Positions 2,611 to 35,518 of a DNA stretch of 36,440 bases are shown here, in pieces. A model generated the notes under the pieces. That model was not told the DNA's origin, did no database searches, and worked only from the letters and a program-made list of their open reading frames with translations. Each line of letters opens with the position of its first letter. Positions within the stretch are counted from its first letter, which is position 1. The stretch is taken from sequence record SRR20825006_3010; one strand, given 5' to 3'. The position numbers and the translations under genes were made by a program.

Positions 2611-2689
2611 GTCTATCTCGCTTTGCCTATCAAGGCGGTGATCTCTGGGGAGGAGAAAAAGTTCGTGTTATTGTTCGTGTTCGTCCGGG

Positions 2690-3211
2690 TCAGAAAAGCT
2701 CTCTCAACGCCTCCAGCAAGGTCTCGACCTCTGCCTCCAGATCACTCACGCGCACCAGCGCGTCCACCTGCTCGCTCGACCATTCACCCACGCCATCACG
2801 GGCAATGGACGCGCCTTCGTTCGCGAGGACGGCCAGAGGGCGCTGTAGGGCCGTGAGCTGGTCACGGAGACCCACGAGGCGGTACCTCCTTTGGTCGGTG
2901 CGCTCTGTGCGGTCCAGGAGTGCGCGCTCAGGGTGATGCAGCGTAAGCTCGACGCGGGGGAAATCGGCACTGTGTCCTTCGCTGGTGACCCAACCCGACC
3001 ATCCCCCGGGGGACGGCCCCTCACGTTCCGTTCGTGCCGCACGCCGGTGTGCTTCCACGGCGGCATTGATTCGCAGGCCCAATTCATCCCAGCTTCCACC
3101 ACGCGGGACGGAGATGGACTGGTAGCCCGTGTCAGTGCCGAAGCCGATGGTGATGTCGGTGGTGTGTGGGGATGGTTGGTCGGGGTTCCTGAAAGCGTTA
3201 ATGAGCGGCAT
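2690..3211 (-). CDS. Hypothetical phage protein with C-terminal coiled coil
   Basis: Start MPLINAF overlaps the upstream stop (GTGATG); purine-rich RBS. Confidence 0.65.
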   Translation of the reverse strand: MPLINAFRNPDQPSPHTTDITIGFGTDTGYQSISVPRGGSWDELGLRINAAVEAHRRAARTEREGPSPGGWSGWVTSEGHSADFPRVELTLHHPERALLDRTERTDQRRYRLVGLRDQLTALQRPLAVLANEGASIARDGVGEWSSEQVDALVRVSDLEAEVETLLEALRELF

Positions 3212-4212
3212 CACTTCCCCTCCCCTTCCAAGATCTCTGCGGCCATGGCCACGACCTCCGAAGCCACCTTCTCTCCAGCCACCAACGCGGTGCGGGGCGG
3301 TGGAGTCTTCGCGGCGTTCTGCGTGGCGAGCGTGATCATTTTCATCCACCCCTTGGACCGCTTGCCCATTCGCATCCGGGACGGGAGCGCCCACACGGTG
3401 GTCATCGCGCCAACCTCGACCGGAGAGGTCGAGGCGGTGATGACGTTCCTGTCAATGTACGTGGCGATACCAGAGCGCGTTTTCACATAGACGGCGCCTC
3501 CCGTCTTGGTCTCGCGGACGATCGAGAGATCCTCGATGCGGACCGCGCGTTCAGGTTCGATGCGACCACTCATGCCGCGATAGGTCTCGGGCCACGAGAC
3601 CTGAAGCATCGTGCCCCTGCCAAGGTCGTCCCAAGGCAAGCCGCCGTTCGCTTCCTCATGCCACGCGTCTCGGGGGATGCTGACCCCCCATCGGCCATCC
3701 ACAGAGGCGAAGATCAAGCGGGCCTCATCGACGCCGCCCTTAACCCCTGGGTGTCCGAGACAGACCGCTGTCATGCGCCACACGGGGCGGCTGCGGTGCC
3801 TCCACACAAAGGGGGCGTGATCATCCCAGGTAAGCGCGTCGGTCAAGGAGGTGTGGGAGGTCTCTTCTTGGACCGGCGCAACATCTTCCTCTTGAACGGG
3901 AGGGGTATGAGCCTCCATCAAGGTCTCGAAGGTCTCCTCTTCGCCCTCTTCGTTCGTCGAGTCAGGATCACCGATGGTCTCCAAGACATCCTCGATGGTC
4001 GTCTCACAAGCACCACGCGCTTGTGCGAAGGTGTCACGGGCGAGATGGCCAAGAAGGCGGTCCTCCATGGCAGTGAGGCGCGCATCCATCGCAGCCATGA
4101 CGCGCGCACAAAGACGATCAAGGAGCTGGTCCTCCTCTACATGCGCAGCAGTTGGAGGATGGGCTGGCGGGGAAGTTGGATCATCATCGAAACCAAAAAA
4201 ATCCTGGCTCAT
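3211..4212 (-). CDS. Hypothetical early protein (acidic N-terminus, beta-rich C-terminal domain)
   Basis: Likely start MSQDFFGF at 4212, directly after the structured leader; coupled to the next gene. Confidence 0.7.
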   Translation of the reverse strand: MSQDFFGFDDDPTSPPAHPPTAAHVEEDQLLDRLCARVMAAMDARLTAMEDRLLGHLARDTFAQARGACETTIEDVLETIGDPDSTNEEGEEETFETLMEAHTPPVQEEDVAPVQEETSHTSLTDALTWDDHAPFVWRHRSRPVWRMTAVCLGHPGVKGGVDEARLIFASVDGRWGVSIPRDAWHEEANGGLPWDDLGRGTMLQVSWPETYRGMSGRIEPERAVRIEDLSIVRETKTGGAVYVKTRSGIATYIDRNVITASTSPVEVGAMTTVWALPSRMRMGKRSKGWMKMITLATQNAAKTPPPRTALVAGEKVASEVVAMAAEILEGEGK

Positions 4213-4231
4213 AAAAACGCTCTCTGGCAAA

Positions 4232-4560
4232 GCAAAGGGCGGCTGTAAAAGATGGCTCAAACCGGCGCTCAAAGCGCCCCATCCGTCACAGCCGCCCTCG
4301 CGGCACTCCCTCAACACCCCCAGCGGTTAAGCTCATGTGAGAGGGATCTTGAATGTCTTTGAATCGCGGTGGTTTGAGGAACCGCGATGGTGAACCGCGC
4401 CGCCCAGGGGTCGAATCCTGAGCGGCTTTGCGGTTCGGTCGGCGCGGATTCGACCCCGCGCCTGTGTTTGAGGGGTGGTGACCCCGAGCGGGCAGCCCAG
4501 GACGCCTCAGTTTAGATGCGTCCCGTCCTCTCCGCTCGATGCCCCCGCCGCCCCGGCGTG
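4232..4560 (-). ncRNA. Structured leader / candidate C4- or CI-like regulatory RNA system
   Basis: At least five GC-rich stem-loops (4236-4298, 4363-4388, 4392-4436, 4441-4462, 4485-4538) with mutually complementary loops. A 4404/4421 mismatch becomes a G-U pair only on the minus strand. Confidence 0.6.
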
Positions 4561-4569
4561 CTACATATA

Positions 4570-4597
4570 ATCTTAAACATAGATGGATCACCGTCAA
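4570..4597 (-). promoter_or_regulatory. Sigma70-type leftward early promoter
   Basis: Minus strand TTGACG-16 nt-TAAGAT; start near 4562, at the head of the structured leader. Confidence 0.6.
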
Positions 4598-4682
4598 GGG
4601 CACCAAAGACCACGATCACCCGCATGAAGCCTAACCCAACACCCTTAATCGTTACCACACGATAAAGAACCGTAAAGGGAAT

Positions 4683-4712
4683 CCTCGTTCTGAGATCCAG
4701 AACGGGGTTTTT
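4683..4712 (+). terminator. Rightward intrinsic terminator
   Basis: CCTCGTTCTG-agatc-CAGAACGGGG (one G-U pair) followed by TTTTT. Confidence 0.6.
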
Positions 4713-5203
4713 GGCGAAAGAGAGGACGCGCAAAGGTCAACAAGATACACACATTTGGATGCTAAAATTTTCTTGAAAAAAAGTTCATTCGAGGTCTTTT
4801 TTCTGCTCGCGCGGGTCTCGGACATGCCCATCAAGGAACCTCCCCGGACCATCCCCGAGCACGGACCCGGACCTTGAACGCGACTGTCCCGAGATCTTCG
4901 AGATCTCACTTTTTCGACCCAGGACGACCAGACCTCACAGAAGCCACGGAGAGCGACAGAAATCCCCCGAGGCACCACTGACCCTCAGAAAGAAATCCGT
5001 GGCGTCTCCGTGGCGCACAGAGGGCCTCCTGTTCAAATTCGTGATCTCATCCGTGATCGGGATGCGATCAGGTTCGAGGTGGTTCGAGGGATGCTCCGAG
5101 GAGTCCCCTTGTCAGCGTCCCCTCACCCGTCCGAGCACCGACACCCCGAACACCGCCCGCGCTCTCGCGCGCGCGTACGCGTATCATGTGCTCCGACCCC
5201 GCC

Positions 5204-5552
5204 ACCCGCTTCGCGGGCGTCGAGGCCGTCGATCCCTCGCGCGTACGTAGTAGGGTATTCCATGTTCTTGTTCCCCTATGCGACTCCCCTAAGCCATCGA
5301 AGCGGAGCGAAGATGGCGTGATGTCGGGAAAATCATGACCATGAAGACATGACCCATGGGGTCATCCAAAAGAATCCCTACAGGCATAAAAAGTCGAGCC
5401 CCCGAAGGGGGCGAACAAAACCCTACTACGTACGCACGCGTTAGCACGTTCCGTGCCAGCATGAAAAAATAGTTGTTTGAGAGGGGTGATTTTCCCGACT
5501 AACACGCTAACTTCGCTCCGCTTCGTTAGCTTAGGGAAGAGCCGCATAGGGG
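5204..5552. repeat. Paired inverted-repeat/hairpin modules (candidate replication origin)
   Basis: A 16-bp perfect inverted repeat (5241-5256 / 5420-5435) and a ~65-bp imperfect inverted repeat (5273-5335 / 5487-5552), each copy of the latter with an internal hairpin; GAA-triloop hairpins on opposite strands. The repeats are observed directly; the origin function is inference. Confidence 0.7.
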
Positions 5553-5868
5553 GTAGTTTGAAAGGGGGTATGTGCAAGGGCGCGCTACGCGCGCGACGTA
5601 GGGATCACGTAGGGAGCACGCCGGGAGCAGCGGGGATTCATCAGCGGTCCCTGGATTTTCATGTTCCGGGATGAGGTCGATGTTCGGGATGACAGGATGA
5701 CAGGACCGAGGATCGGTCCTTGATGGGATATGGGATGGAAGGATGAAAGGGGAGCTTGATGAGGGTGATGACCTTGGTGGGAATGTCCGAGGTCGGAAGG
5801 ACGTCGAGATGACCTTGATGGGAACGTCCCTCACACTCCCCCGGCGCCAGCCGGGGGATGGTTCCTGT

Positions 5869-6123
5869 TCATGCCTGTGCGAGATCCTCGAATCGGAAGA
5901 CCGGCAACGCATCCACCGCCTTCTCTTCCTTGGGAGGCAGGAACACTCCGGGCGCACCTTCGACCATCACACGCCACACAAGGGCACGGGGATCTGTGAT
6001 CTTCGGGTACGTTCGTTGGAGCAGTTCCATCTCCCTCTCGGTCAGCGTGACGGTGGTCGTGACCGTACGGTGAGAGGAGGATGCGTGATCTTGGGAGTGT
6101 TCCTTGTTCGTCTTCGTGGTCAT
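5869..6123 (-). CDS. Small protein with RHH/CopG-like N-terminal pattern
   Basis: Alternating beta strand VTTTVTLT followed by helix EREMELLQ; an extended -10 (TGGTATAAT, 6167-6175 minus) lies upstream. Confidence 0.5.
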   Translation of the reverse strand: MTTKTNKEHSQDHASSSHRTVTTTVTLTEREMELLQRTYPKITDPRALVWRVMVEGAPGVFLPPKEEKAVDALPVFRFEDLAQA

Positions 6124-6204
6124 GATGCGGTCTCGTAGTCGTGCTCCGGGGAGGGAGATGACCCGCATTATACCACGGGGAGACGGTCAAGAAAAGCGGT
6201 TAGG

Positions 6205-6822
6205 TTATGAACACTGCTCTATGGCAGGTGTGAGGATAAGACAGTGCTCAACGAACTCCCTCTTCGCTGCTGCCGTTATGTTCGCGCTGATAGCTTTTTC
6301 AAAAAGCATCTTCAACTCTTGGGCATAGTCTTCTGCCTTGTGGGTCGCGGCATCGAGACAGGGAATTGCTTTCTCGTGGGTCGAAGCAGCGGCGGCTTTC
6401 TTGTATCCCTCCTTCTCAAGAACATCCAACCAGTCATCGATTACATCCTTACGAGCAGGAGGGTTCTTGCTCTTCGACTTGCTTGGTGCAAGATCCCAAG
6501 TCATCAGCACCTTGCCCATCTTCTTCTCTTCCTTCTTCTTCTTCTTCGCCGCCATCCGAGCCTGTACTTCCTCCCTGGAAAGAAGCCTCACGGGAGGGTC
6601 AAGGGCTGCCAAAGCATGCCTCACAATGTCCTCATTCGATCCTCCGGCCTTACCTGAAACCAACTGCTCGCCGTCTTCGGTCATCACAGACCACTCTCGA
6701 TCCCTTACGGCGTTGGTCTTAATCTTCACGATGAGGATGCTCCCATCATCGACGTTGACAGAGACCTCAGCACCCACCATGTCCCCGTGCTCAGCAACTA
6801 TCCACCCTGTTCGCCCTGACAT
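6205..6822 (-). CDS. Hypothetical protein (Lys-rich linker)
   Basis: 205-aa ORF with a purine-rich GAGGAGAG leader; moron-like composition. Confidence 0.7.
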   Translation of the reverse strand: MSGRTGWIVAEHGDMVGAEVSVNVDDGSILIVKIKTNAVRDREWSVMTEDGEQLVSGKAGGSNEDIVRHALAALDPPVRLLSREEVQARMAAKKKKKEEKKMGKVLMTWDLAPSKSKSKNPPARKDVIDDWLDVLEKEGYKKAAAASTHEKAIPCLDAATHKAEDYAQELKMLFEKAISANITAAAKREFVEHCLILTPAIEQCS

Positions 6823-7042
6823 CCTTCTCTCCTCTCCTCATCCCGACGAAAACCCCACACAACCGCACCACGCGCCCGTGAACCGCCCTCGCCTCATCAT
6901 TGTGATCTTGCTTGTTCGCTTTGCGCACCCACCATCACTCTGCAAGACATCCCTCGTCAAGAGCATCCCTCTCACGGTTCGATAATGTCTCTATCTCCCG
7001 TGTGTCCGTCACGCCCTCCCCGGCATTACACGGAGACACGAG

Positions 7043-8029
7043 ATGTCACGAACACCCCCCAAAGCGGGCGTCCATTGGTCGCCCGAAGAGATCGAGATCC
7101 TCACCCGGCTTTATCCGCGCGCACCATGGGATGACCTCCTGGAAGCCCTCCCCGGTCGCACTTACGCCGCTATCGCGCGGCAAGCCCACAAGCGCCGGAT
7201 TCGACGTGTAGGGCACCATCCCCGGACCACCCCGCGCCACCGTCCCTCACGCCCTCCAGGGATGCACGAGCGCAACGATCACGAGGTCGTGTGTGACCCC
7301 GAGACGGGCGTCGCTCTGTTCGCTGAGATCATCCTCCCGACCCGCGACGGCACCGAGCGAGCGCGGACCCGCGTGGACATGTGCGACCTCCGACCCTTGC
7401 TCGAAATGGGACGGTGGACGCTCCTCACGCAGACCCATTGCGACCAGGAGTATGCGTACACGAAGGGTGGCCCTGGCCAGCCCCGGACGATTCTCATGCA
7501 TCGCATAGTCCTTGGCCGCGTTCGTGGGCAGGCTCTCAGGTCGCCACGAGGGGATGGGGAAGAAAGAATGGTGGTCGATCACCGTGATGGAGACGGCCTC
7601 AACAACACGCGGGACAACCTCGCCTTGATCACGCAGTCGCAAAATCTAAGAAAATCAAAACCTTACCGCCGTCGTACCTCAGACCAAATCGGCCTCCCAG
7701 AGGGCGTCCGCAGGGAGTTCTCCCGCATCGTCGCCATCGCCAGCATTGACCGGCGCGGCGTCTCCATCACCCGTATAGACCCTCGTGATCATGAGAGTGA
7801 GGATGCGGCCATCGCCTTGGCCGCCTGCATCCGTCAGAGCGTTCAGGAGCTTATCCACGGGCCGGGGGCTATCGGTGTTGATGCCGAGTATGCTTGGCGT
7901 GATCTGGTGAGTGAGGAAGAGGCTGTGAGGTGGGCGGTGCAAGCGTTGGAGACACGGGCGCGGTATAAGCTGCCGATGCGGGAGAGGTATGTGGCGCGGC
8001 TTGAGGAGTTGAGGGGGATGATGGGTTAG
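7043..8029 (+). CDS. HNH endonuclease with N-terminal Myb/SANT-like DNA-binding segment
   Basis: HNH core LMHRIVLG...VVDHRDGDGLNNTRDNLALITQSQN; N-terminal WSPEEIEILTRLYP...LPGRTYAAI; GGAG RBS. Confidence 0.85.
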   Translation: MSRTPPKAGVHWSPEEIEILTRLYPRAPWDDLLEALPGRTYAAIARQAHKRRIRRVGHHPRTTPRHRPSRPPGMHERNDHEVVCDPETGVALFAEIILPTRDGTERARTRVDMCDLRPLLEMGRWTLLTQTHCDQEYAYTKGGPGQPRTILMHRIVLGRVRGQALRSPRGDGEERMVVDHRDGDGLNNTRDNLALITQSQNLRKSKPYRRRTSDQIGLPEGVRREFSRIVAIASIDRRGVSITRIDPRDHESEDAAIALAACIRQSVQELIHGPGAIGVDAEYAWRDLVSEEEAVRWAVQALETRARYKLPMRERYVARLEELRGMMG

Positions 8030-9081
8030 GCTTCTTCTTTTGGGTCAGCAATCGCATCCAACATCCACGCTTGCATCTCCTCTTCTGTCATGCCTTCAAG
8101 CATCGTGCCCTTCGAGAGTGTAAAGAGCATCCCCTTGAACTCCACTCGAACCCTCTCGAACTCCTCTTCCAACTGCTCGCTCACGATCTGCAAGGCCCCT
8201 TTGCGTCCCTCGTCATCCAATGAGTCCCAATCTCTTCGTACCTCTGCCAGCGCATCTGTTACCAGTGAGGTAATTTCTTTCGCGCGTCGGAACATCAGGA
8301 AGATAGATGCTGCTGCGTGGGACATCACGGCTTCACTGAGCTTCTCCACTCTTTCGACATGCGCCAGCCGGGTGTCCCTACTCTCGCTTTGGCGTCTCAG
8401 GTCTTCGATCTCGCCATTCCACTTCTTGATCAGATCTTGCATCGCCCACCTGAACACGATGGTGGTCGCTAGAAAAGAGAGGAAGCTGCCCAATATCGTT
8501 CCCCAGAAGACGTGCAGCCAGTTGATGGGAGGCGACTCGACCTCCACCACCCCTGCATCTTTCTGTCCGGTCACTCGGATGCGCTCAGTCGCCACACTCT
8601 CCACAGACGCATCAGACCATACTGTGAGGTACACTTGGTCTTGTGCACGGATAGGCTCGAACTGGATGCCTTCTGCTGAAACATCAACAACCTCGATGTC
8701 CTTCTTCCGAGGGTACTTGATGTGTGCCATCCCCTCGAAAGGGAATTGGAGACCAACCCCTTTCAGCTCCTCTCCCTTGGCATACGTGACTGTAACCTCC
8801 CACACAGACTTGTAGGCCGAAGAAGGATCTGAGGACTTGTGAGGTGCGCCACGCACAACAGCCTCAACCGTCTCAGGCGCCTTTAGGGCTTCGTTGACCT
8901 GACTCCCAATTACGCCGAAGATGGCAGCGAAGACCGCACCACAGAACGTGATAATGATCCCAGCCTCGACTTTGTTGTCAGAGGCCCACAAGAAAAAACG
9001 CTCGACCGCACCCTTCTTCTTGGACTTGCTCTCCTGGGGTGGTTGAGGTGCCTTCACGACTTCAGTCTCTTCATCCGACAT
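8026..9081 (-). CDS. Moron membrane protein (2 TM segments, extracytoplasmic beta domain, C-terminal coiled coil)
   Basis: Hydrophobic stretches GIIITFCGAVFAAIFGVIG and VFWGTILGSFLSFLATTIVF; opposite orientation to flanking phage genes; GGAGG RBS. Confidence 0.75.
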   Translation of the reverse strand: MSDEETEVVKAPQPPQESKSKKKGAVERFFLWASDNKVEAGIIITFCGAVFAAIFGVIGSQVNEALKAPETVEAVVRGAPHKSSDPSSAYKSVWEVTVTYAKGEELKGVGLQFPFEGMAHIKYPRKKDIEVVDVSAEGIQFEPIRAQDQVYLTVWSDASVESVATERIRVTGQKDAGVVEVESPPINWLHVFWGTILGSFLSFLATTIVFRWAMQDLIKKWNGEIEDLRRQSESRDTRLAHVERVEKLSEAVMSHAAASIFLMFRRAKEITSLVTDALAEVRRDWDSLDDEGRKGALQIVSEQLEEEFERVRVEFKGMLFTLSKGTMLEGMTEEEMQAWMLDAIADPKEEA

Positions 9082-30270: not shown

Positions 30271-30289
30271 TTTGGGCATTATTTGGGCA
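30271..30289. repeat. Probable integrase arm-type binding site pair, right arm
   Basis: Identical to 206..224. Confidence 0.75.
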
Positions 30290-30302
30290 TTGGCATATCG
30301 CC

Positions 30303-30337: not shown

Positions 30338-30340
30338 CAA

Positions 30341-30363
30341 TGGAGGTGGCGGGAGTCGAACCC
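30341..30363 (-). repeat. att core within the reconstituted ssrA 3' end
   Basis: 23-bp identity to 34..56, covering the T-loop and acceptor 3' strand. Confidence 0.93.
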
Positions 30364-30730
30364 GCGTCCATGGACCTTCGGTCTCGACAACTCTACGTGC
30401 GTAGTCTGAGATTACTGCTTAGCCTCCAAGACGGCTGCCCCCAGACAGGCCACCGCAGTGGAGAGCACTTCGTATATGTCACCTCGCCGTGAAGTACGAA
30501 GTCGGCGAGATCGAGCCTGCTGTTTGTCGTCTCGTGCCCCCCACAGGCAAAGGGACACGAGACGGGCTTCACTTTGGAAGCATCAGTGGTCTCTACTACT
30601 TACGCAGCGAGGGCCAGCTCAACGTTGTCGTTGGCATTTGTGTGTTTCTCGATTCTTATAACGAGGCTTATCGAGTGCCCCGGCACGACATCATCGGCGT
30701 CACTGCCCATGTCGAACCCAAATCACCCCC
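30341..30730 (-). ncRNA. ssrA: tmRNA
   Basis: 5' GGGGGTG pairs with 3' CACCTCC-A (G3-U alanine determinant); T-arm GCGGG-TTCGACT-CCCGC; tag frame 30600..30635 reads ANDNVELALAA*; downstream of smpB; CCA not encoded. Confidence 0.96.
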
Positions 30731-33856: not shown

Positions 33857-35518
33857 ATGGGAATGTTCGACGTTGTCGCGAAAGGATTTCGTGACGTTCG
33901 AAACAAGTTCGAAGGCAAAAGTGAGATCACCGAAGAGAACATCGACGAGGCGATCCAGCAGATCCGCATGAGCATGCTCGAGGCGGATGTGAACTTCCGC
34001 ATCGTCAAGAGCTTCATCAAGCGGGTCAAGGAGAAGGCGCTCGGCGAGGTCGTCCGCGTCAAGGTCGGCAAGAAAGAGAAGAAGCTCGACGTCTCCCCTG
34101 GCGATCACTTCATCAAGATTTGCCACGACGAGCTCGAAGGCCTCATGGGCCCCGTCGACACCTCGATCGTCTTCCAATCCTCGCGCCTCGGACCGACCAA
34201 GATCATGATGGTCGGCCTCCAGGGTAGCGGTAAGACGACCACCACAGGCAAGCTCGCCAAGCACCTCATCGACGTGCACGAGAAGCGCCCGCTGCTCGTC
34301 GGCGCCGACGTCTACCGCCCCGCTGCTATCGAGCAGCTCCGCGTGCTAGGACGCCAGCTCGATGTCCCCGTCTACGCCAAAGAAGGCGGCGACCCGATCG
34401 AGGTCTGTAAAGAGGCGATCACCTTCGCCGAGCAAAACGACTGCAACGTCATCCTGTTCGACACCGCCGGCCGCCTGGCTGTCGATGACACGCTGATGAC
34501 CGAGCTCGAGCAGATCGTCGAGAAGACCAAGCCTGGAAACATCTTCCTCGTGGCTGACGCCATGATCGGTCAGGACGCCGTGAACACCGCCAAGGAGTTC
34601 AACGACCGCCTCGAGATCGATGGCTTCATCATGACCAAGCTCGATGGTGACGCGCGCGGCGGCGCGGCGCTCTCCATCAAAGAGGTCACCGGCAAGCCGA
34701 TCAAGTTCATCGGTACCGGCGAGAAGCTCGAAGACCTCCAGGAGTTCCGCCCCGAGGGCCTGGCCAACAGGATCCTCGGCTTTGGCGACGTCATGGAGCT
34801 GATGAACCGCTTCGAGAAGACGATGACGGACGAGGACGCCGCCCGCGCCGAGCAGGACGCGATGCGTATGCTCAGCGGCGAGTTCGACTTCAACGACTTC
34901 TACAACCAGCTCGAGCAGATCTCGAAGTTGGGGAACCTTCGCGAGCTGATGGAGCTGATGCCATTCTTTGGCGGCGCCATCCCCGATGACCTCAACCTCG
35001 ATGACAAGGAGCTGCTGCGCATCAAGGCGATCATCCAGTCGATGACGCACAAGGAGCGCACGCAACCAGATCACCTCACGCGCCAGCCAAACCGCCTGCG
35101 TCGTATCGCGGCAGGTTCGGGCCAGGAGCTCGAGAAGGTCGAACAGGTCGTGCAGCAGTTCAACATGATGCGCGGCATGATGCAGCAGTTCAGCAACATG
35201 GGCGGCGGCTTCCTCGGCAAGCTCCCTGGCTTCAAGCAGCTCAACACGATGCGTCAGCTCAAGGATATGGACATCGGCGCGCTCTTTGGCGACATGATGG
35301 GCGCACAGGGCGGCGGCGCAGCCCCCGGCGGCCAGGGCGGCCCTGGCGGCGGCCTGATGGGCATGCCTGGATTTGGCGGTCTCAACCTGCCTCCAGGCTA
35401 CACGCCTCCCGGGCAGCGCATGCAGTCGCAAGGAAACGGCGGCACGAAGTCCAAGTCGATGTCGCGCTCCAAGCGCAAGCGCAAGCGCAAGATGGCCAAG
35501 AAGGCGCGCAAGAAGTAA
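33857..35518 (+). CDS. ffh: Signal recognition particle protein Ffh
   Basis: LEADVN, GLQGSGKTTT, DTAGRL, TKLDGDARGGAALS, Met-rich M domain; GAGGAGG RBS before ATG 33857. Confidence 0.98.
   Translation: MGMFDVVAKGFRDVRNKFEGKSEITEENIDEAIQQIRMSMLEADVNFRIVKSFIKRVKEKALGEVVRVKVGKKEKKLDVSPGDHFIKICHDELEGLMGPVDTSIVFQSSRLGPTKIMMVGLQGSGKTTTTGKLAKHLIDVHEKRPLLVGADVYRPAAIEQLRVLGRQLDVPVYAKEGGDPIEVCKEAITFAEQNDCNVILFDTAGRLAVDDTLMTELEQIVEKTKPGNIFLVADAMIGQDAVNTAKEFNDRLEIDGFIMTKLDGDARGGAALSIKEVTGKPIKFIGTGEKLEDLQEFRPEGLANRILGFGDVMELMNRFEKTMTDEDAARAEQDAMRMLSGEFDFNDFYNQLEQISKLGNLRELMELMPFFGGAIPDDLNLDDKELLRIKAIIQSMTHKERTQPDHLTRQPNRLRRIAAGSGQELEKVEQVVQQFNMMRGMMQQFSNMGGGFLGKLPGFKQLNTMRQLKDMDIGALFGDMMGAQGGGAAPGGQGGPGGGLMGMPGFGGLNLPPGYTPPGQRMQSQGNGGTKSKSMSRSKRKRKRKMAKKARKK

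Follow-up and report, generated by a model that had tools for sequence, protein, structure and literature searches.

The window, by which we mean the whole stretch of 36,440 nucleotides analyzed here (sequence record SRR20825006_3010), contains a novel marine prophage of about 30.3 kb integrated at the 3' end of ssrA. No deposited phage has a large terminase more than about 30% identical to that of this prophage, whose lineage is therefore new. The landmarks of the prophage and its surroundings are the following:

34-56 and 30341-30363: prophage ends, a 23-bp exact direct repeat that is the 3' end of the tmRNA
291-1433: tyrosine integrase, the only recombinase detected in the window
4320-5868: ORF-poor stretch of about 1.5 kb, holding the two modules B and B', all of the hairpins near them and the repeats A and A'
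From 9931 onward: genes for the small and large terminase, the portal and the capsid
30338-30730, minus strand: tmRNA, the only Rfam family at gathering score in the whole window
33821: host ffh

A second direct repeat, alike at 22 of 23 positions, is found at 206-228 and 30271-30293; its left copy lies some 170 bp inside the left end, its right copy some 50 bp outside the right end. Eight proteins of the window had no identical counterpart in an exact search. As for the host, its Ffh is 45-48% identical to the proteins of four Planctomycetota genomes and 40% identical to that of a gammaproteobacterial MAG. Against 301 Planctomycetota genomes the best identity was 51-52%, the highest among the groups tried. 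The host protein (33863-35518) has a long Gly/Gln-rich and Lys-rich tail, over which some of the Planctomycetota matches extend.

The ORF-poor stretch shows no third-position or codon periodicity, contains no ORF with a family match and is flanked by minus-strand genes at 3211-4212 and 5869-6168. A blastn search with 4320-5870 returned no similar DNA among phages or plasmids. Of the candidate stretches for the neighboring proteins in viral contigs, none (0 of 12 and 0 of 63) was confirmed as a related locus. The protein of 3211-4212 is an ORFan, with three relatives in a word-indexed search, a single one in a full HMMER search and no usable match in the Atlas; its AlphaFold model (mean pLDDT 44.7) is too poor for a fold search. 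Conservation in this protein is confined to the C-terminal 186 residues. Two of its three relatives begin at the equivalent of M147, so that the true gene may be shorter or the N-terminal module may be variable. The gene on the other side had been called ribbon-helix-helix-like in an earlier note on this DNA. The protein 5869-6123 has no sequence relative in the PDB (best E 1.1), and its predicted model is compatible with such a fold, but only at low confidence (mean pLDDT 59.7). The sole recognizable regulator of the early region is an HTH_3 (Cro/CI-type) protein encoded at 1714-2055 on the plus strand.

Within the ORF-poor stretch we distinguish the following elements:

5205-5217, minus strand: triloop hairpin CCCGC-GAA-GCGGG
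5241-5256, plus strand: repeat A (GCGTACGTAGTAGGGT), which includes a GTAGGG word
5273-5335, plus strand: module B, with a hairpin at 5293-5317, stem GCCATC/GATGGC and a cap that is purine-rich on the plus strand
5349-5365: hairpin ATGACCC/GGGTCAT, between B and the central block
5385-5412, minus strand: terminator-like GC hairpin (the hairpin itself at 5398-5412), with a T run on the minus strand only
5420-5435, minus strand: repeat A', the exact inverted copy of A
5441-5470, plus strand: promoter-like site (TTAGCA, 18 nt, TG-AAAAAT) directed rightward into B', recognized at the level of the consensus only
5444-5456, minus strand: triloop hairpin GCACG-GAA-CGTGC, unchanged in the related prophage X2
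5487-5552, minus strand: module B', the inverted copy of B, whose hairpin at 5506-5530 has the stem GCTAAC/GTTAGC and carries the same cap, here with the purine-rich side on the minus strand
5580-5594, minus strand: hairpin GCGCGC-GTA-GCGCGC
5702-5720, plus strand: 8-bp hairpin with a GGA triloop

The inverted repeat of about 65 bp described in the earlier note (5273-5335 and 5487-5552) is indeed present. Its two copies are 86% alike over 66 columns (BLAST E 1.65e-12), and apart from the att repeats they are the sole long internal repeat of the window. Their alignment contains six substitutions and two indels. Four of the six substitutions fall within the 12 stem positions, where they amount to two base pairs changed with full compensation (C-G becoming T-A, and T-A becoming A-T), so the claim of compensatory stems holds as well. 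The identical 13-nt loop of the note needs revision: the same 13 nt do occur in both modules, but they are predicted to be structured rather than open, and with DNA and RNA parameters alike a 3x3 internal loop (GAA/GAA) leads to two G-C pairs topped by a GGA triloop. The hairpin unit of 25 nt is thus made of a 6-bp covarying stem, a symmetric GAA/GAA internal loop and a GCGGAGC mini-hairpin cap. In both B and B', CTAAGC lies 5' of it and GCGTG 3' of it, with GTG directly following the hairpin. The spacer between the modules is 151 bp long and contains no ORF with a family match. When up to 2 mismatches were allowed, the 15-nt core occurred twice in the window, against a mean of 0.20 in shuffled sequences, and two occurrences were reached in 1 of 100 shuffles. 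A REPIN consists of two inverted REPs that are a short distance apart and fold into a single long hairpin. Here the spacer measures 151 nt, the predicted fold of the single-stranded DNA pairs B with B' (z -8.9), and the stem changes weaken this B:B' pairing and preserve each of the local hairpins.

The cap places these hairpins in a well-described class. Mini-hairpins of the form d(GCGNAGC) are presented as extraordinarily stable in DNA in the review by Hirao (2026, PMC13037366), which also describes mini-hairpins at G4-type priming sites, at origins and priming sites of single-stranded-DNA phages and, as CCGAAGG, in RSF1010 ssiA. The GCGGAGC of the window is an exact member of the class, set here inside a longer hairpin by means of the GAA/GAA mismatches. 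Since a GCGNAGC cap is known for its stability in DNA, it fits single-stranded DNA at least as well as RNA. According to the same review, a promoter hairpin of the phage N4 virion RNA polymerase carries the identical heptamer (PMC13037366). We rejected an N4-type virion polymerase in this case, as a 30-kb prophage has no room for it and no ORF exceeds 839 aa.

Other claims of the earlier note on this region were confirmed. The second inverted pair, A and A', is exact and is interleaved with the modules in the order A-B-A'-B'. The C-GAA-G triloop hairpins occur on opposite strands, at 5205-5217 (minus) and 5398-5412 (plus). The window holds eight GNA-triloop hairpins with a stem of at least 5 bp (36.4 kb, both strands), and five of them lie within 5205-5720. 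The GTAGGG words are also clustered, with 5 of the 12 in the window located in 5250-5614. The extended -10 motif (TGCTAAAAT) is found at 4760-4768. Just downstream of it, in the same non-coding stretch and 470 bp from the modules, lies the lowest-GC 40-mer of the window (4763-4802), with 23% GC; the next lowest has 33%. Finally, the 17-nt word CCTTGRTGGGAAYGTCC occurs three times, at 4820-4836 (minus) and at 5772-5788 and 5813-5829 (plus), in inverted positions that bracket the non-coding region. Shuffled sequences gave a mean of 0.34 matches to this word, and three matches were reached in 2 of 100 shuffles.

A search of sequencing runs returned contigs, not reads: one run, probably the source, contains the whole stretch, and two contain related prophages, X2, a relative of 2678-8351, and X4, small pieces from a seawater metagenome. 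Comparisons with the relatives refer to those parts of the stretch that their contigs cover. In both relatives, the element stands at the same place as in the window. In X2 the stem of B' is GCCATC/GATGGC, as in the B of the window, and not the GCTAAC/GTTAGC of the window's B'. The changes at 5508, 5510, 5526 and 5528 correspond to two base pairs, each altered on both sides, whereas the cap and the CTAAGC/GCGTG flanks are unchanged in surroundings that differ by about 10%. The neighboring hairpins also vary in this relative. At 5580-5594, positions 5583 and 5591, which form one base pair, are both absent and the middle base of the loop is altered, with the hairpin kept. At 5702-5720, a T-to-C change at 5717 produces A.C when the plus strand folds and G.U/G.T when the minus strand does. 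The best-conserved part in X2 is the block 5395-5458, which contains the central GC hairpin, A' and the hairpin at 5444-5456 and shows no substitution and a single missing base; 19 substitutions are listed in 5459-5560. One base of A' (5427) is absent in both X2 and X4. Coverage by X2 contigs stops at 5298 and starts again near 5363, as happens when an assembler meets a long exact inverted repeat, and hence the B of X2 is not visible. Judging from these sequences, the hairpins are kept in evolution. Compensatory changes in quasi-palindromes can also be produced by template switching in the absence of selection. The upkeep of the hairpins could therefore reflect either selection or template-switch correction, since the sequences of the relatives are compatible with both.

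Some features of the relatives lie outside the modules or concern their assembly. A joint between opposite strands in X4 was considered as an inversion and rejected, as it is explained by the resemblance of that relative's B' to B. The segment 4264-4415 is identical in the contigs of X2 and of a further run, X3, and is 97% alike in X4; the adjacent DNA of X2 differs by about 10%. In 6197-6820, X2 has 426 unrelated letters in place of the gene 6205-6822, with the flanks kept, which amounts to a mosaic swap of an early gene.

Where else does this hairpin occur? We scanned metagenome contigs with the pattern CTAAGC-N3-CGAAG-N5-CGAAG-N3-GCGTG, which leaves the stems and the five central bases free, and obtained five loci. 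One of them (L063) was set aside as a chance match by its appearance. The other four (L059-L062) are one and the same repeat, with a GTAGGGTGGG head, the core and a CCCAC tail, and all of them read CG.AG in the free center. The order of its parts is GTAGGGTGGG, CTAAGC, a 3-nt segment, CGAAGCG.AGCGAAG, the complementary 3-nt segment, GCGTG and CCCAC. The 3-nt segments covary between copies, being fully paired in three of the four loci and including one G.T pair in the fourth. At the middle position of the cap G, T or C is found, with the G and A of the cap constant; other copies of the family have a plain GAA triloop in place of the long cap. The repeat is multi-copy, as shown by the five GTAG heads within 1417 nt of L062. 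Its head was found in 5 of 151 sampled genomes of the order Rhizobiales, with 59 copies in one of them and often in inverted doublets about 75 nt apart, and in none of five alphaproteobacterial genomes. By the description that Di Nocera et al. give of such families (PMC3733652), we class the GTAGGGTGGG-headed repeat as GTAG-tagged REP.

In 2.9 million viral contigs the module core was found in a single one, a provirus (L001) that carries an inverted doublet of the REP family (2914-3040) directly upstream of its portal gene. This doublet indicates that REP units do enter prophages. The conserved blocks of 26 and 28 nt had no match in the viral contigs. A scan of 185,579 species genomes, one per species, for the exact cap gave 57 loci, none of which has the flanks of the modules. 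Most of the 57 are low-complexity sequences of the GAAGCG type or other hairpins, and the core occurs once or twice in each of five genomes or records. Several, e.g., in Mesorhizobium and Aquamicrobium, are other extragenic palindromes with the same cap. Over the 36.4 kb of the window itself the core is present twice, the 6-kb host flank has no copy, and no match to a RAYT-type gene, the Y1 transposase cognate to REPs, was found among the scanned ORFs.

The window pair shares with the REP family the same inner hairpin, identical at all 25 positions that are conserved between B and B'. As in the GTAG REP super-family described by Di Nocera et al. (PMC3733652), it is a short, extragenic and imperfect palindrome, arranged as an inverted pair and with a covarying 3-bp stem segment. 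Its size also fits the 20-40 nt of such palindromes, with a hairpin of 25 nt in a module of 63-66 nt devoid of coding signal. However, no GTAG abuts the hairpin of B or of B', and for this reason we do not file the pair as REP: a GTAGGG lies 36 nt 5' of the CTAAGC of B, and for B' it lies on the 3', i.e., the wrong, side. The family also has a lower, outer stem (GGTGGGC/GCCCACC) that the window modules lack, and its units are about 20 to 75 nt apart instead of 151 nt. Furthermore, the sources of the family are soil metagenomes and Rhizobiales, whereas the window host is, by its Ffh identity, not a member of the Rhizobiales; on these protein identities, the family and the host likely come from different phyla.

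What could such a pair do in a prophage? Our preferred reading, which we hold tentatively and would put somewhat short of an even chance, is that the modules are tail-to-tail, BIME-like units of the REP class, whose palindromes are scattered over some bacterial chromosomes, placed around a conserved terminator/promoter block, where they probably act as barriers to and stabilizers of transcripts. In a preprint, one REP of Escherichia coli is described as a partly Rho-dependent terminator and mRNA stabilizer, and REPs between convergent genes are reported to accompany higher expression (10.64898/2026.03.23.713779). Because B and B' are inverted, the purine-capped hairpin is the same on whichever strand is read or exposed towards the center. 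At the center itself lies the conserved block, with its minus-strand terminator-like hairpin and its plus-strand promoter-like site. The region would then be transcribed, and the hairpins would form in RNA rather than only in single-stranded DNA, with an effect on the phage. The units may pause or terminate transcripts that enter the central block, like the reported REP hairpins, and may protect the 3' ends of transcripts that run into it. The leftward early operons could in this way be insulated from one another. Only the central hairpin (5412-5398, minus) qualifies as an intrinsic terminator; the hairpins of B and B' were considered for this role and rejected, as no T run follows either of them.

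The earlier note had proposed a different function, a strand-specific origin in single-stranded DNA that needs no Rep protein. Each opened strand would expose a purine-capped hairpin, a phage or host primase would start the leading strand just 3' of it, and synthesis would proceed away from the central 150 bp on both sides, in the manner of RSF1010 ssiA/ssiB. The latter are described as inverted repeats of 40 nt in which nt 7-27 form a hairpin and the primer begins in a GTG located 3' of it (PMC8567376). The same arrangement of one hairpin per strand, inverted and directly followed by GTG, is found here, and the GCGNAGC cap recalls the CCGAAGG of ssiA and the mini-hairpins of priming sites (PMC13037366). 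The compensatory changes preserve Watson-Crick pairs on both strands, the lowest-GC 40-mer is 470 bp distant, within this non-coding stretch, and three families of short repeats lie nearby. We nevertheless consider priming on both strands unlikely. Scans of early-region ORFs against Pfam, PHROGs and NCBIfam brought up neither a primase nor a helicase or initiator family, the prophage has no DnaA box (the sole match of the window is in host DNA), and the GC skew is uninformative. Moreover, ssiA/ssiB are called unique to IncQ-type plasmids in the source that describes them (PMC8567376), the same type of hairpin also exists as a multi-copy REP that is not an origin, and the motif occurs in just 1 of the 2.9 million viral contigs. 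The pair resembles the oriV of RSF1010 (IncQ) in its near-identical inverted hairpins, one per strand, with a GNA-type cap and a 3' GTG. But homologues of RepA, RepB' and RepC were not found in the scanned ORFs, there is no sequence likeness to ssiA, the pair sits in a tailed prophage and not in a small plasmid, and no defined iteron array adjoins the modules, the short repeats being irregular and 170-470 bp away. As the cognate proteins were not found, we do not file the pair as an IncQ-type origin. Of the proposed origin, the strand-symmetric, compensated hairpins and the DNA-type cap are supported. That it is Rep-less is not established: no replication family was matched in the scanned ORFs, yet most early genes are ORFans and could include an initiator. 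That a tailed temperate phage with no recognizable replication gene starts both of its strands at inverted REP-type mini-hairpins would, in our estimate, be rather improbable.

Yet another possible function is at the level of RNA. In the P4 CI and P1 c4 RNAs, the regulator and its complementary targets are on the same strand and a terminator follows the regulator. In DNA such a layout appears as interleaved inverted repeats, as in the A-B-A'-B' of the window, although the window shows no sequence or Rfam likeness to these RNAs. A minus-strand RNA ending at 5398-5412 would carry B' and A' and pair with B and A further downstream on the same strand, and the kissing of the 13-nt loops together with a 16-nt duplex would control read-through into the 4212-2239 operon. 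This is distinctly unlikely in our view, even if several features are as one would expect. On one strand the loops of B and B' are exactly complementary and their stems differ, which fits kissing hairpins. A and A' are exactly complementary too, a minus-strand terminator with its T run directly follows A', and the part best conserved in X2 (5395-5458) is the one with the terminator and A'. In addition, the change at 5717 in X2 retains pairing on the minus strand only. However, the minus strand upstream of B' showed no promoter-like site, and the minus-strand RNA across one module (5600-5370) folds no better than its shuffles (z -1.1), which counts against our preferred reading as well. A search of 4000-7000 in Rfam 15, at E up to 1, gave no family, and a sub-threshold snoRNA match elsewhere in that range was the only one. 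The cap is predicted to be internally structured instead of open, and A' lacks one base in both relatives, where a matching change in A was not visible. The pair could also have no role at all: a REP- or MITE-like element would have entered an ancestor of the phage and persisted there, with template-switch correction keeping its hairpins perfect. The likeness to the REP family, the REP doublet inside another provirus and the terminal inverted copies of 63-66 nt around 151 bp with no family-matching ORF are all consistent with such a neutral remnant. Yet two diverged relatives carry the element in the same position, its cap and flanks unchanged in surroundings that differ by about 10%, no target-site duplication is evident at 5272/5553, and the window holds no further copy. 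We consider this explanation improbable; a MITE, more specifically, was rejected, since the inverted ends are present but there is neither a border duplication nor an additional copy in the window. Very improbable, finally, is a role of the repeats as sites in double-stranded DNA, either operators for a phage repressor (e.g., the product of 5869-6168) or crossover sites at A/A' or B/B' for inversions that flip a one-way terminator. The inverted pairs do flank a terminator-like hairpin, GTAGGG words are concentrated in this part (5 of the window's 12), and the predicted model of the adjacent small gene product is compatible with a ribbon-helix-helix fold. But covarying half-sites around a fixed 13-bp spacer are the reverse of what is expected from a dimeric operator, the integrase (291-1433) is the only recombinase found, and the contigs of the source run contain no inverted form, with the caveat that contigs drop rare variants.

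Should the pair serve the phage, a hairpin of the REP type would have been recruited as a single-locus control element, at work either in transcripts or in single-stranded DNA. Selfish palindromes would then be linked to the regulation or replication of phages, in a host that is far from the bacteria of the multi-copy family. If instead the reading as an origin were true, two-strand priming of the IncQ style would extend to tailed phages, outside the IncQ plasmids, and REP-class hairpins could act as priming signals or derive from them. The two natural stem alleles with an unchanged cap offer a direct test system for the function of the hairpin.

The same non-coding region has further structured segments on either side of the modules. 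To the left, at about 4400-4462, there are two T-arm-like hairpins, followed by a strong terminator-like hairpin on the plus strand (4683-4707). The segment 4260-4712 has no tRNA or Rfam match and may encode an antisense RNA directed at the leader of the operon that runs leftward. To the right, 5581-5835 (plus) is the densest GGA tract of the window, with 15 GGA per 180 nt against a mean of 3.3 (sd 2.0). It includes 5 GGATG and 11 GATG words, has no Rfam match and is variable in X2; these repeats could be iterons or an RNA resembling a CsrA/RsmA sponge.
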